Positions 7,050 through 20,171 of a DNA stretch of 26,194 nt are shown in pieces; the first letter of the stretch is position 1; each line of letters opens with the position of its first letter. The DNA comes from a virus. The stretch is taken from the UHGV virus genome UHGV-0110177, one strand, 5' to 3'. The notes under the pieces were generated by a model, which was not told the origin of the DNA, did not search any database, and saw only the letters and a program-made list of their open reading frames with translations. The translations under genes were made by a program, and so were the position numbers.

Positions 7050-7176
7050 TGTTTTATCCTCACTTCGTGTAGAATGGAGGCGCCTTAATGGCACCTCGGT
7101 TTTACCAAGTAGAATGTCCGGTTCGCTTTGGTCGGTTAGACCGGACAGGGCAAGCCCACCTCGTGTGGGCTTTTGC

Positions 7177-8405: not shown

Positions 8406-8472
8406 ATATTAAGCCTTAGACTTAACTAGTGTCAAGCTCAGGACTGAATTCATAGTTAAGTTTTAGGCTTAT
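8406..8472. promoter_or_regulatory. OL-like operator/promoter unit: 17-bp palindromes TTAAGCCTTAGACTTAA (8409-8425) and TTAAGTTTTAGGCTTAT (8456-8472); leftward promoter -35 TTGACA (8435..8430) and -10 TAATAT (8411..8406)
   Basis: Palindromes share the half-site TAAG/CTTA with the two sites between repressor and cro; good sigma70 hexamers on minus strand with 18-bp spacer. Confidence 0.6.
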
Positions 8473-8538: not shown

Positions 8539-8742
8539 ATGTCAAACGATGATGAGTTTTTCGCGGAGATGCATCCGCAGATAGCGCAGGTGATCGGTAT
8601 GGCTGTGATGCAGATTCTGGTTGAAGGGCGTGAGATCACAAAGGCAGAAATAATCGAGACGATTCAGGTTCTGTGGCAGGAGGAGCAGGTTGATCTTGCT
8701 GTTGAGTTAGCGCTGGATGTACTAATGCTGCCAAAAGAATAG
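8539..8742 (+). CDS. Small acidic hypothetical protein (67 aa) transcribed rightward from the OL-like region
   Basis: ATG 8539 with SD GAGGA; reading frame continues from the track ORF 8488..8742. Confidence 0.5.
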   Translation: MSNDDEFFAEMHPQIAQVIGMAVMQILVEGREITKAEIIETIQVLWQEEQVDLAVELALDVLMLPKE

Positions 8743-8745
8743 GGC

Positions 8746-8780
8746 AAAAAAAAAGCCCGGAACGTGTCGTAATCCGGGCT
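8746..8780 (-). terminator. Rho-independent terminator for minus-strand transcription (8-bp stem AGCCCGGA/TCCGGGCT, then U9 on the minus strand)
   Basis: Perfect stem plus A9 run on plus strand read directly. Confidence 0.7.
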
Positions 8781-9093: not shown

Positions 9094-9120
9094 AATAAAA
9101 ACCCGGCGTGGTGTCCGGGT
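9094..9120 (-). terminator. Rho-independent terminator ending the repressor operon (stem ACCCGG/CCGGGT, then UUUUUAUU on the minus strand)
   Basis: Hairpin and T-run located 8 nt after the stop of the 118-aa gene. Confidence 0.7.
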
Positions 9121-9127
9121 CGAAGAG

Positions 9128-9484
9128 TTATTTTAGAACAAGTCCATTAAGAGCATCCAGAATTTTTGAAACGTAATTCCCAAAAATATAAGCACAGAAA
9201 GCAAAAATGATGCTCACTACAGCAGCCGATGCTTTTATGGTTGTTTTGGCGGAGCCAATGCCTGTCTCTATTGCCGCTAACCTTGAATCGATTGACTTTA
9301 TGTCAGATTTTACTTCAGCGATATCGCGCTTAATGTATTCAACATCTGACTCAAGCTTTGCAACTCTTGCCTGCATGTCACCACCCCCACCAGAACCATC
9401 ACCGTCTTTGAAGTTAGTATGGGGGGTTACAGCTCTATTTTCAACTGGCGCTTTCGCGGGGTTAAAACTATAAACTTGCCCCAT
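9128..9484 (-). CDS. Tail-anchored membrane protein: Gly-rich linker, coiled coil, C-terminal TM helix (118 aa; alternative ATG at 9376 gives 82 aa)
   Basis: ORF co-transcribed downstream of repressor; ~42% GC versus ~52% in core genes; C-terminal hydrophobic segment AAVVSIIFAFCAYIFGNYV. Confidence 0.6.
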   Translation of the reverse strand: MGQVYSFNPAKAPVENRAVTPHTNFKDGDGSGGGGDMQARVAKLESDVEYIKRDIAEVKSDIKSIDSRLAAIETGIGSAKTTIKASAAVVSIIFAFCAYIFGNYVSKILDALNGLVLK

Positions 9485-9920
9485 TTACGGCATCTCCGGT
9501 GTGATGAATTACATGAAAATAACAGCTATGGCTGTCGATTATTTCGCTTGTCTTATTACCATGTTCATCATTTTTGAAGTTTGTAATTTTGGCTTCATAA
9601 AGCCCCTCTTTACTGAGGTCTACATCGCTGACAAACATAGATGAAATGTAACAAACGTGATCGCTTTCAATGAAGTTGATTGATGATGTTTCAAAATAAC
9701 CATCATCATCATGCATAATGATTACTGTATGATTATTAAATAGAATATCTATTTCAGTGCGTACAAGATGATTTACAGGGACAGAAAAGCCTATAGTGAT
9801 AATCACTGTCTGCAACTCATTTGTAGGAGAGGGGGATAGCATCGGCATGGGCTGATACCACTTAAGCCCCTTTATTCCATCTTTCTGTAATGTGGGATAA
9901 GCAAACAGAATTTTATTCAC
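9468..9920 (-). CDS. AT-rich hypothetical protein (150 aa, GTG start)
   Basis: GTG at 9920 with SD AAGGAAG 8 nt upstream; ~37% GC; sits between repressor and membrane protein. Confidence 0.55.
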   Translation of the reverse strand: MNKILFAYPTLQKDGIKGLKWYQPMPMLSPSPTNELQTVIITIGFSVPVNHLVRTEIDILFNNHTVIIMHDDDGYFETSSINFIESDHVCYISSMFVSDVDLSKEGLYEAKITNFKNDEHGNKTSEIIDSHSCYFHVIHHTGDAVNGASL

Positions 9921-10364: not shown

Positions 10365-10373
10365 ATCAGAAGA

Positions 10374-10441
10374 ATAAGCCTTTTGCTTATAAATTAAAAT
10401 TCGCTCAGGACTTGATCTTTTGTTAAGTCTGAGGCTTAATT
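10374..10441. promoter_or_regulatory. OR-like operator/promoter unit: palindromes ATAAGCCTTTTGCTTAT (10374-10390) and TTAAGTCTGAGGCTTAA (10423-10439); rightward promoter -35 TTGATC (10412-10417), -10 TTAATT (10436-10441)
   Basis: Inverted repeats read directly; placed between divergent repressor and cro-like genes; cro SD GGAGA follows. Confidence 0.65.
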
Positions 10442-10467
10442 TATTTGTGAATCTAGTGGAGATACTC

Positions 10468-10701
10468 ATGAACGGATTAGAAAAGGCCATTCAGAAAGCT
10501 GGCACTGCCAGCAACTTAGCCGCAAAGCTAGGCATTAAACCGATGTCGGTTAGTCGCTGGAAAACACGATACAAGGGCGTCGTGCCAGCCGATCGTGTTT
10601 TACCAATTTTCAACGCAACTGGTGTTACCCCCCATGAATTGCGCCCTGATCTGTATCCGAACCCCACGGACGGATTACCAGCGCAGGATGCGAGGGCGTA
10701 A
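10468..10701 (+). CDS. Cro/YdaS-like HTH protein (77 aa)
   Basis: HTH (ASNLAAKLGIKPMSVSRWK); first gene rightward of operators; SD GGAGA. Confidence 0.75.
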   Translation: MNGLEKAIQKAGTASNLAAKLGIKPMSVSRWKTRYKGVVPADRVLPIFNATGVTPHELRPDLYPNPTDGLPAQDARA

Positions 10702-10703
10702 CC

Positions 10704-11246
10704 GTGCATTCAATTTCATTTCAACAAAATACCGGGTTTCCTCCAGCCACGATGATAAATCGCAATCAGCCTGATCCGGCGGATAAGCATGACCAGATTC
10801 GGGCTGCCGTTCGTGCGTGGTCGGCATCGCTGGACAACCAGGACGTAGTCGCCGGGATCATCGTTGAGGAATGGGAACGGCAGGGCGGCGCCGGGCTGGA
10901 TTTTCCTGACGACCTGAGCCGTAAGCGGCAGAAGCTTTTCCGCTGGCTGGACAGCGATACCGGATATGCGCGCGAAAACATCCGTCAGCTGACTCCGGCG
11001 ATCCTGGCTGTTTTGCCGCTTGAGTTTCGTGGTCGCCTTATCGGACAGGATTGTTTCATGACGCGTTATGCAGCGATGGAGAAGGAAATCAGCGAGGCGA
11101 AACAGGCCGTAATGCTGAATGCGCCAAAGCATCAACTGGTGAAAGAGGTCAGGGAAGGGATTGAGCATCTGCTGAATATGTTGCCGGGTGATGCTGTCGT
11201 TCAGGTTCTGAGTGGTATCGCGGCCATAGCGCCGGGTGTCATGTGA
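10704..11246 (+). CDS. YdaT-family protein (CII-position regulator), 180 aa from GTG
   Basis: Recalled similarity to E. coli YdaT core (EEWERQGGAGL...LTPAILAVLPLEFRGRL compared with EEYLRQGGGEL...LIPAILAILPRELRHRL); SD GAGGG before GTG. Confidence 0.65.
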   Translation: MHSISFQQNTGFPPATMINRNQPDPADKHDQIRAAVRAWSASLDNQDVVAGIIVEEWERQGGAGLDFPDDLSRKRQKLFRWLDSDTGYARENIRQLTPAILAVLPLEFRGRLIGQDCFMTRYAAMEKEISEAKQAVMLNAPKHQLVKEVREGIEHLLNMLPGDAVVQVLSGIAAIAPGVM

Positions 11247-11510: not shown

Positions 11511-11629
11511 AAGGGTGAAGACCGCTGTGCTCCAACACAGACGGCCTTCGGGTGCAATTCGTTGCGTACTCATTGCGAGATCATTATGACAAAGAGTTTT
11601 TCAAAACACCAGGCAAGGGAGGCATAGCT

Positions 11630-18639: not shown

Positions 18640-18804
18640 GGCAGGAGGAACGTTTCCACACAATTTATTTTCTGGAATCAACCCGCCATAATCATGTCAT
18701 CGGAGCCTGAACAACTCCGGTGACTTCTGCGCATTTAAGTCCCCTTAAATGCGACCACCATCTCAACTCCTCACCTGCCACAGATGCAAATGCTCTTAAT
18801 GATT

Positions 18805-18828
18805 AAACCCGCTTCGGCGGGTTTTTTT
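18805..18828 (+). terminator. Rho-independent terminator (CCCGC-ttcg-GCGGG then T7)
   Basis: Read directly. Confidence 0.75.
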
Positions 18829-18899
18829 ACGCCTGAAATTTGTGTCTATGGGTTAACAATTCGTGCTCTTAAAACGTTGATCATTTCGCTTTATAGGTA

Positions 18900-18919
18900 T
18901 ACTGTATAAAAACACAGTA
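18900..18919 (+). promoter_or_regulatory. LexA box (TACTGTATAAAAACACAGTA) upstream of dinI
   Basis: Matches CTGT-N8-ACAG SOS box consensus; 19 nt upstream of dinI ATG. Confidence 0.8.
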
Positions 18920-18937
18920 TACGCAGTGGAGGCCACT

Positions 18938-19171
18938 ATGAAAGTTGAGTTAACTATTGATCGAACAAAGAAACTTCCTGATGGTGCAGTGCCAGCATTA
19001 GAAGCCGAACTGTTACGTAGGCTCAGCCAGAACTATGAAGGGGTAAAACTTACAATTCGCCGCGCAGGGGCTGATGGCCTGAGTATTCTGGGGGGTGAAA
19101 AAGGGGACAAGCAGCGCATTGAGGAGATTCTTCAGGAGACCTGGGTAAGCGCCGACGACTGGTTTTACTAA
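18938..19171 (+). CDS. dinI: DinI-like DNA-damage-inducible protein (77 aa)
   Basis: Recalled similarity to E. coli DinI (KQRIEEILQETWVSADDWFY C-terminus); LexA box upstream; SD GGAGG. Confidence 0.85.
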   Translation: MKVELTIDRTKKLPDGAVPALEAELLRRLSQNYEGVKLTIRRAGADGLSILGGEKGDKQRIEEILQETWVSADDWFY

Positions 19172-19288
19172 CATTGCGCTTGGGGCTGGCGCGCATTTTT
19201 TCAGAATACCGCAATTTGTGTATCCCTTTGATGCTGCTGCCGACAATTTTTAACCGCGTCTGTATGTCGCTCGAAGGGAGAATAGAAT

Positions 19289-19537
19289 GTGAGTAATTCA
19301 GCTTTGCAAACGTCAGAAGATAACTGGTATGACATTGTAAGACGGTCTGACGGCTGCGTGGTGTTTAGCTTTCCTTCGTCGGGCAGGCATCTTATCTATC
19401 GCGTCAATGGTATGGTTTCTATGCGGCCTTTGCTGGATGATGAAGAAGTCTTTACTCCCAATGGCTTTATGCAATTTATTCGCCGTCTCGGCTACCGGGT
19501 AACGCCACCTTCTGATAATATGAAATCAACGGTCTGA
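19289..19537 (+). CDS. Hypothetical protein (82 aa, GTG start), downstream of dinI
   Basis: SD AAGGGAG 9 nt before GTG. Confidence 0.5.
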   Translation: MSNSALQTSEDNWYDIVRRSDGCVVFSFPSSGRHLIYRVNGMVSMRPLLDDEEVFTPNGFMQFIRRLGYRVTPPSDNMKSTV

Positions 19538-19574
19538 ACAGCCGTTAACCTGCTGCGCCACGGAGTGAACAACC

Positions 19575-20171
19575 ATGGCGCAAACACTGTATTTTGAAAA
19601 GACCTTCCAGAACGCCCTGATTTCGGTTGATCCCGGAACCAGCGAATTTTTACAACTGTTACCAACAGGACAGTTGCTCACTGGTGAGTTCCGCAAGCCG
19701 CGAAACTACGCATTCCACAAAAAATTCTTCAAGCTATTGTCGCTTGGCTATCACTACTGGACACCAACCGGCGGACTTGTTGAGGAATCAGAGCGGTCGC
19801 TAATCTCCGGGTATATTGATTTCCTGTCATCAAACCCGACACAACGTAACGCGCTCCATAACGCTGCTGATATGTACCTGAATACTGTCGGACTGGTGCG
19901 TTCCCGCGAAGTCGTACTGCTGAAGCATTTCGAATCCTTCCGCGAGTGGGCAACTATTCAGGCGGGATTTTACGACGAATATATCATGCCCGATGGCAGC
20001 CGACGGCGCACGGCTAAATCCATTTCCTTCGCCAGCATGGATGATGCCGAATTTAACGGCGTCTATCAGTCGGTGCTCAACGTTCTCTGGAACTACATAC
20101 TGCGTCGAAAATTCCGTTCAGCGAATGACGTCGAGAACGCCGCCGCCCAGCTCATGAGCTTTGCGGGGTGA
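19575..20171 (+). CDS. Conserved phage protein of unknown function (198 aa)
   Basis: ORF in nin-like region. Confidence 0.6.
   Translation: MAQTLYFEKTFQNALISVDPGTSEFLQLLPTGQLLTGEFRKPRNYAFHKKFFKLLSLGYHYWTPTGGLVEESERSLISGYIDFLSSNPTQRNALHNAADMYLNTVGLVRSREVVLLKHFESFREWATIQAGFYDEYIMPDGSRRRTAKSISFASMDDAEFNGVYQSVLNVLWNYILRRKFRSANDVENAAAQLMSFAG

Follow-up and report, generated by a model that had tools for sequence, protein, structure and literature searches.

A Predicted Gifsy-Type SOS Induction Switch with a GfoA Orthologue and a GfoR/GfhR-Family Repressor in Virus Genome UHGV-0110177

The repressors of the prophages Gifsy-1 and Gifsy-2, like that of Gifsy-3, remain uncleaved on induction, which requires a locus under LexA control that lies past the replication genes, some 1.3 kb downstream of them (Lemire, Figueroa-Bossi and Bossi, PLoS Genet 2011; PMC3121763). 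The operon at this locus consists of a dinI homologue, a small antirepressor gene with a non-canonical start codon and an irsA homologue, and in all Gifsy prophages it carries a LexA box preceded by a palindrome resembling a Rho-independent terminator (PMC3121763). The antirepressors GfoA, GfhA and GftA form stable complexes with their repressors and thereby free these from DNA; pull-down, gel-filtration and gel-shift experiments demonstrated binding and release for the pairs GfoA/GfoR and GftA/GtgR, the GfoR-GfoA complex was reported as probably A2B2, and the gfoA-type gene alone sufficed for induction (PMC3121763). The present analysis concerns a system of the same kind in UHGV virus genome UHGV-0110177, a stretch of 26,194 nucleotides (hereafter the window), in which a LexA box and a dinI homologue are followed by a small open reading frame (ORF) of 82 amino acids (aa), and a 128-aa repressor is encoded further upstream.

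By megablast the window falls among lambdoid prophages of the Gifsy-like kind from Salmonella, Escherichia, Klebsiella and Citrobacter, with a mosaic likeness to Gifsy-1, Gifsy-2, SPN3UB, SEN34 and mEp237; the closest genomic matches were mosaic too, at 78–86% identity. The order found at 18700–19800 was a terminator, a promoter-like pair, the LexA box, dinI, an ORF with a GTG start and a DUF1367 ORF. The same order of dinI, small ORF and irsA is present in Gifsy-1, Gifsy-2, mEp237, SPN3UB and PHB10, and in Chris1 likewise but without irsA. In every feature of the Gifsy GfoA/GfoR operon that can be read from a sequence, the window system agreed with the published one. This SOS switch is the previously published Gifsy-type system and is hence a known one, and the window very probably derives from a Gifsy-family lambdoid prophage that would be induced in the SOS response through an antirepressor, without self-cleavage of the repressor. 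The coordinates given in the original prediction for the LexA box, dinI, the 82-aa ORF, the repressor and a 67-aa ORF were all correct on recheck, and its proposal that the small gene after dinI encodes a Gifsy-like LexA-controlled antirepressor is supported by the gene order, the gfoA primers, the 77/81 identity described below and the repressor family.

The identity of the 82-aa ORF was checked against the primer tables of PMC3121763. The gfoA 5′ primer ATGAGTAATTCAGCTTTGCAAAAG corresponds to GTGAGTAATTCAGCTTTGCAAACG, the window sequence from 19289, where the gfoA forward primers anneal with (ATG)AGTAATTCAGCTTTGCAAAAG. At the other end, the gfoA 3′ primer sequence TCGTCGTCTCGGCTACCGGGTAACACCACCTTCTGATA aligns to the 3′ end of the ORF with two mismatches, and the 3′ tagging primer TCGTCGTCTCGGCTACCGGGTAACACCACCTTCTGATATA corresponds to TCGCCGTCTCGGCTACCGGGTAACGCCACCTTCTGATAATA in the window. 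When IMG/VR was scanned for the core of the 5′ primer, 37 loci were found, 36 of them encoding an 82-aa protein with a TTG start, (M)SNSALQKSEDSWYDIVRRSDGCVVFSFPSSGRHLIYRVNGMVSMRPLLDDEEVFTPNGFMHFIRRLGYRVTPPSDNMKSTA or a close variant, and the remaining one a protein truncated at 42 aa. The window protein was identical at 77 of 81 positions to the Salmonella allele carrying the primer sequence, and 97.6% identical to gp49 of coliphage mEp237. By these primer matches and the two identities taken together, the 82-aa ORF is a GfoA orthologue. Its GTG is preceded, at a distance of 8 nt, by the Shine-Dalgarno sequence GAAGGGAG, and about 37 clusters of homologues were found, in prophages of Enterobacteriaceae. 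The exact 40-nt gfoA 3′ primer had no match in IMG/VR, the database alleles all reading GATAATATG at the place where the primer has GATATA. Likewise, the 3′ primers le163 and pp867 (PMC3121763) end in ...CTTCTGATATA, while the window at 19495–19520 and all 37 database alleles read ...CTTCTGATAATATGAAA.

The 82-aa gene had been described beforehand as one of unknown function following dinI, and this description still fits the databases: phrog_340, to which its product belongs, is labelled 'unknown function', no family was found in Pfam or NCBIfam and no match in a PDB sequence search, and the AlphaFold model, with a predicted local distance difference test score (pLDDT) of 65, gave no PDB fold match at E ≤ 0.001 (best E about 1). 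Homology with the GftA branch was considered and rejected, since BLASTP against Gifsy-2 GftA gave an E value of 0.72 in the wrong register and the proteins belong to different PHROGs (phrog_340 and phrog_4847); this agrees with the report that GfoA and GfhA are only distantly related to GftA (PMC3121763). A large antirepressor of the P22 Ant/KilAC type (ANT, KilAC, Bro-N; about 200–300 aa) was also rejected, on the lack of any Pfam or NCBIfam match in the 82-aa protein.

The LexA box, TACTGTATAAAAACACAGTA, was the sole site with three or fewer mismatches to the LexA 20-mer in the 26-kb window, and 0 of 100 shuffled sequences matched; the near-consensus box that the original prediction had placed on the dinI promoter was thus confirmed, with a 17/20 match and as the only one in the window. 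The LexA dependence of transcription is experimental for the close homologues (PMC3121763), the window site being judged by its sequence. The terminator hairpin upstream of the box is conserved with Gifsy-2. The dinI ORF starts with ATG behind a GGAGG ribosome-binding site, and its product matched NCBIfam NF007893 at E 9.5e-27 with 93.3 bits, under the curated cut-off of 111 bits. The third gene of the operon falls in the same PHROG (phrog_319) as Gifsy-2 STM1020. The LexA core CTGT-N8-ACAG occurs twice in the window, against 0.35 expected; the second copy (CTGTGCTCCAACACAG), at 11525–11540 just upstream of a replication gene, has a GC-rich spacer and a poor fit to the 20-mer, and is probably due to chance.

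The repressor gave no match to Peptidase_S24 in Pfam, and its AlphaFold model (pLDDT 83) was all-alpha, with a five-helix helix-turn-helix (HTH) domain (residues 9–67), a linker and two C-terminal helices (80–90 and 94–123), in agreement with its earlier description as a short HTH protein with no visible S24 autocleavage domain. Nor was the S24 domain (PF00717) among the Pfam domains that are listed for the best 120 homologues, most of them 126–139 aa long (range 108–216). A self-cleaving repressor of the cI/LexA type was rejected on the missing S24 match, the length of only 128 aa and the entirely helical model. Foldseek placed the model next to XRE-type HTH domains, among them those at the N-termini of P22 c2 and the 434 repressor, and next to SinR; a phmmer search against the PDB returned only ubiquitin matches to residues 72–94, which were treated as chance.

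For comparison, GfoR was recovered from the IMG/VR loci by both of its primer-encoded ends (MKEKTHQIN... and ...EKYMKGRIRTRED), and GfhR-type proteins by the pair of in-frame starts reported for gfhR/gfhR* (MTKVKHH... and MSDNTL...); the C-termini of these GfhR-type proteins resemble, but are not identical to, the end encoded by the gfhR tagging primer. The window repressor shared 60% identity with GfoR, 80% with the short GfhR-type form and 26% with GtgR, and its C-terminal 78–80 aa (SKSSALA...KYMGRRIKGD) were 97–99% identical to those of GfhR-type repressors. GfoA and GfhA each inactivate both GfoR and GfhR, though these repressors are heteroimmune (PMC3121763). Since the C-terminal domain of the window repressor is near-identical to that of these two GfoA/GfhA-sensitive repressors, we infer that the shared helical domain is the surface met by the antirepressor. 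If this is true, contact with the C-terminal two-helix domain would mean that one induction signal could serve many heteroimmune prophages. The divergent N-terminal domain suggests, as the sole basis for this proposal, that the window repressor has a new and distinct immunity specificity, so that the new element here would be an immunity variant only, in which the conserved C-terminal domain carries a new HTH head. An in-frame ATG upstream, at 10490, would make the repressor ORF 170 instead of 128 aa long and take it across the operator region (10365–10490, minus strand), as in Gifsy-3, where a longer form, GfhR*, appears on induction (PMC3121763).

The linkage of these parts was followed across genomes. 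In 36 of 36 Salmonella-type loci of IMG/VR, those with enough upstream sequence, a LexA box was found 388–392 nt before the antirepressor start, the distance in the window being 389 nt. A repressor with the shared C-terminal domain was present in all 11 IMG/VR loci reaching at least 5.9 kb upstream, although in one of them (L027) at only 35% identity. A genomic scan with one genome per species gave 24 loci (Citrobacter, Enterobacter, Raoultella, Leclercia, Atlantibacter and others), with an upstream LexA box in 23, dinI between the box and the antirepressor gene in 20 and DUF1367 downstream in 22, while in three the box lay directly before the antirepressor gene and dinI was absent. A GfoR/GfhR-type repressor was encoded 5–10 kb upstream on the opposite strand in 16 of the 24, and a GtgR-like one in a single locus; in the window the repressor lies 9 kb upstream of the operon, also on the opposite strand. 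The module is found widely, with its parts kept together. Variants of it were also seen: in the dinI-less loci of Silvania and Leclercia (L065, L066 and L069) the LexA box precedes the matched part of the gene by about 185–192 nt, and two IMG/VR loci (L017 and L033) have, upstream of the gfoA operon, two adjacent repressor-like genes that share the C-terminal domain, with 88% and 48% identity to that of the window.

Table 1. Coordinates of the features of the SOS switch and the immunity region in the window.
Feature	Position	Strand	Evidence and remarks
Intrinsic terminator	18807..18828	+	ACCCGC-TTCG-GCGGGT followed by seven T; ends the upstream early-right transcript; read from sequence
Putative PdinI promoter	18877..18903	+	−35 TTGATC (18877–18882), −10 TATACT (18898–18903), 15-nt spacer
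LexA box	18900..18919	+	TACTGTATAAAAACACAGTA; overlaps the −10 region; 20-bp palindrome, 17/20 against consensus TACTGTATATATATACAGTA
dinI homologue, operon gene 1	18938..19171	+	Pfam PF06183, E 4.6e-25; phrog_189
Conserved leader, 117 nt	19172..19288	+	Hairpin and T-run 19175–19199; Shine-Dalgarno 19273–19280
GfoA-orthologous antirepressor gene, 82 aa	19289..19537	+	GTG start; gfoA primers match both ends; phrog_340
irsA/DUF1367 homologue, operon gene 3	19575..20171	+	198 codons, ATG start; Pfam DUF1367, E 1.6e-68
GfoR/GfhR-family prophage repressor gene, 128 aa	9978..10364	-	HTH_3 the only Pfam match; no S24
Candidate right operators	10375..10389, 10424..10438	.	15-bp palindromes TAAGYY-N3-RRCTTA between the repressor and cro-like genes
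Candidate left operators	8410..8424, 8457..8471	.	Palindromes of the same TAAGYY-N3-RRCTTA type
cro-like HTH gene	10468..10701	+	Divergent from the repressor gene; phrog_35, E 1.6e-23; ATG at 10468, GGAG upstream
cII-like gene	10704..11246		After the cro-like gene, before the replication genes
67-aa acidic protein gene	8539..8742	+	phrog_3946, unknown function; beside the candidate left operators

A mechanism can be proposed from these data. In the lysogen, the 128-aa repressor would silence the early promoters, probably through the palindromes at 8410–8471 and 10375–10438, and host LexA would occupy its box and block the dinI promoter. On DNA damage, RecA-stimulated cleavage of LexA would open this promoter, and the resulting transcript would span dinI, the GfoA orthologue with its weak GTG start and the irsA/DUF1367 gene. 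The accumulated antirepressor would then bind the repressor in a stable complex and free the DNA without proteolysis, and the prophage would be derepressed. The scheme builds on the anatomy of the locus, the GfoA and GfoR/GfhR orthologies and the linkage across genomes as determined directly here, and takes the LexA dependence, the binding and the release of DNA from the literature on close homologues. Independent support comes from Owen et al. 2017 (PMC5322425), in whose work one single-nucleotide polymorphism in the −10 of PdinI-gfoA determined if Gifsy-1 was inducible and viable.

Several points weigh against this mechanism. The interaction between the 82-aa protein and the 128-aa repressor of the window is inferred, the element being known from sequence alone; the N-terminal 50 residues of the repressor are unlike those of both tested repressors, and the antirepressor specificity could differ if this part is the contact site, the contact surface being unmapped in PMC3121763. 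In 7 of the 24 genomic loci no recognisable GfoR/GfhR/GtgR-type repressor was found within 10 kb, which means either that the linkage has exceptions or that the repressor is encoded at a greater distance. The PdinI promoter was not called by a generic sigma-70 scan, because this required a spacer of 16–18 nt and that of the promoter is 15 nt; the proposed −35 and −10 are drawn only from conservation with Gifsy-2. Finally, the window ORF ends in PPSDNMKSTV, while the published tagging primers imply a fusion after PPSDI; either a 1-nt deletion in strain 14028 ends GfoA at PPSDI, or the tagged constructs lack the last 5–6 residues.

Three other explanations were weighed against the Gifsy-type switch. 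The module could be a decayed remnant, intact in sequence in a prophage that is no longer inducible, for example through a weak promoter or the loss of late genes. A precedent exists in Gifsy-1 of strain D23580, in which one single-nucleotide polymorphism in the −10 of PdinI-gfoA abolishes induction (Owen et al. 2017; PMC5322425), and, as the window covers just part of a prophage, completeness cannot be judged from it. This explanation is nevertheless unlikely, as the operon ORFs are all intact, the ORFs of the repressor, of the cro-like, cII-like and Q-like genes, of replication and of the lysis region are open, and the −10 TATACT and −35 TTGA, in the same TTGA..N15..TATACT layout, equal those of the functional Gifsy-2 promoter.

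It is somewhat less probable still that the 82-aa protein is of the GfoA type but acts in trans on the repressor of a co-resident prophage, the window repressor being inactivated in another way. Such cross-talk is documented, both for GfoA and GfhA as described above and for FsoA of Fels-1, which inactivates GtgR of Gifsy-2 (PMC3121763), and the window repressor departs from the tested ones in its N-terminal third. Against an action in trans stand the near-identity of its C-terminal 78–80 aa with the GfhR type, whose members are demonstrated targets of GfoA and GfhA, and the absence from the window of any other LexA box or antirepressor candidate. Hardly credible, finally, is an antirepressor role of the 67-aa protein, a candidate named in the original prediction and not upheld here, with the ORF after dinI serving some other SOS-related purpose. 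That protein is small and acidic, of unknown function and encoded beside the candidate left operators of the immunity region, but scans of the 26-kb window found no LexA box near its gene. Its place is taken by homologues in P22-like phages such as SPN9CC, which has a cI annotated as LexA-family (the self-cleaving family), so that the gene is not tied to non-cleavable repressors, and for the published induction the gfoA-type gene sufficed alone (PMC3121763); the candidate was rejected on the missing LexA box and the SPN9CC homologues.

The operator palindromes, which generic repeat finding failed to reveal, were spotted by eye and then confirmed by a pattern search. The pattern TAAGYY-N3-RRCTTA occurs four times in the window, in each case flanking the immunity region, and 0 of 100 shuffled sequences reached four; the copy at 8410–8424 matches the reverse complement of that at 10424–10438 at 14 of 15 positions. 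On this evidence the 128-aa repressor probably has its left and right operators in the four palindromes. In the same region, the 67-aa gene is followed by a terminator at about 8744–8780, and homologues of its product are also found in Klebsiella prophages. Directly downstream of the repressor gene and on the same strand lie two genes, at 9128–9484 and 9468–9920 (minus strand), in a rexAB-like position and ending at a terminator near 9100–9120. One encodes an XhlA-like protein of 118 aa, whose hydrophobic C-terminal segment may cross the membrane, and the other a 150-aa protein with no match to a Pfam or PHROG family; the pair may represent exclusion or defence cargo expressed in the lysogen. 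Further to the left, 7087–7175 (plus strand) matched the Rfam family isrB, an Hfq-binding small RNA, with 74.7 bits (gathering score 35), and overlaps the 5′ end of a recE-like gene on the opposite strand.

The leader between dinI and the antirepressor gene was 85–90% identical to those of Gifsy-2, Gifsy-1 (14028 type), mEp237 and a C. amalonaticus prophage, whereas dinI was 66–71% identical there. In Gifsy-2 the leader identity was 85.5%, although the antirepressor gene, gftA, belongs to a different family. The leader thus appears to travel as a unit, being kept where dinI has drifted and where the antirepressor family differs. A terminator-like hairpin with a T-run was called at 19175–19193, and across genera the hairpin just after the dinI stop codon stays a hairpin with differing sequences; the blocks TCGC...GCG, GCTG, GCGTC...GTCGCT and the G-rich Shine-Dalgarno are kept. 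The window leader folded with a z score of −2.1, with CCCUU paired to the Shine-Dalgarno, a pairing present in 7 of 12 single-sequence folds. RNAalifold on the leader gave only two small invariant hairpins and did not recover the helix between CCCUU and the Shine-Dalgarno, and a pair count for this helix showed 90% pairable cells, no compensatory changes and no excess over shuffled sequences. No Rfam family matched the operon or the leader, and one upstream ORF in the leader proved, on inspection, not to be kept from genus to genus. It is plausible that the leader attenuates expression of the antirepressor: a partial terminator hairpin, sequestration of the Shine-Dalgarno and a weak GTG or TTG start would together hold its output far below that of dinI. 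That the leader is a cis-regulatory RNA element setting the SOS threshold for induction is a tentative suggestion, with the chances rather against it.

The system brings no new biology, as the prophage would take the published antirepressor route to SOS-coupled induction, which can be reversed since the repressor is left intact. It does expose a gap in annotation. The gene is called 'hypothetical protein' in every annotated phage record carrying it and in all source names of the 37 clusters, and the gfoA-type gene is still without a Pfam or NCBIfam model although its function was demonstrated in 2011. A GfoA-type family model would allow the induction route to be predicted across prophages of Citrobacter, Enterobacter, Klebsiella, Salmonella and E. 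coli. The window repressor, in turn, illustrates module shuffling, in which a new DNA-recognition head is joined to a conserved C-terminal domain.

Among the known systems, GfoA/GfhA-GfoR/GfhR of Gifsy-1 and Gifsy-3 (PMC3121763) resemble that of the window in the operon anatomy, the antirepressor (77/81), the distance of the LexA box and the near-identical C-terminal domain of the repressor. They differ in the N-terminal HTH region of the repressor and in the start codon, which is GTG in the window and TTG in theirs; the host of the window is probably not S. Typhimurium, the closest cassettes being found in Citrobacter and in coliphage mEp237. Gifsy-2 GftA/GtgR is alike in operon position, LexA-controlled dinI promoter, conserved leader and short HTH repressor, but GftA has no detectable similarity to the 82-aa protein, and GtgR, 26% identical to the window repressor, is reported as insensitive to GfoA and GfhA.

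More distant likenesses are those of Tum of coliphage 186 and AntC of N15, likened here by description, in which LexA represses the antirepressor gene directly and the product binds a non-cleavable repressor. Tum differs in being about twice the size, with a DinI-like part fused C-terminally (PMC3121763), whereas dinI in the window is separate and the first gene. Lambda cI, P22 c2 and LexA share with the window repressor the N-terminal XRE-type HTH fold and the control of divergent early promoters, but the window repressor has no S24 peptidase domain and ends in two helices. SinR/SinI of Bacillus subtilis offers an analogy only, with an XRE HTH and a C-terminal helical domain in SinR, and the complex (1b0n) was among the structural matches to the repressor. 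SinI is a small antagonist that binds the helical domain of SinR. The two systems have no sequence relationship and serve a different biology.

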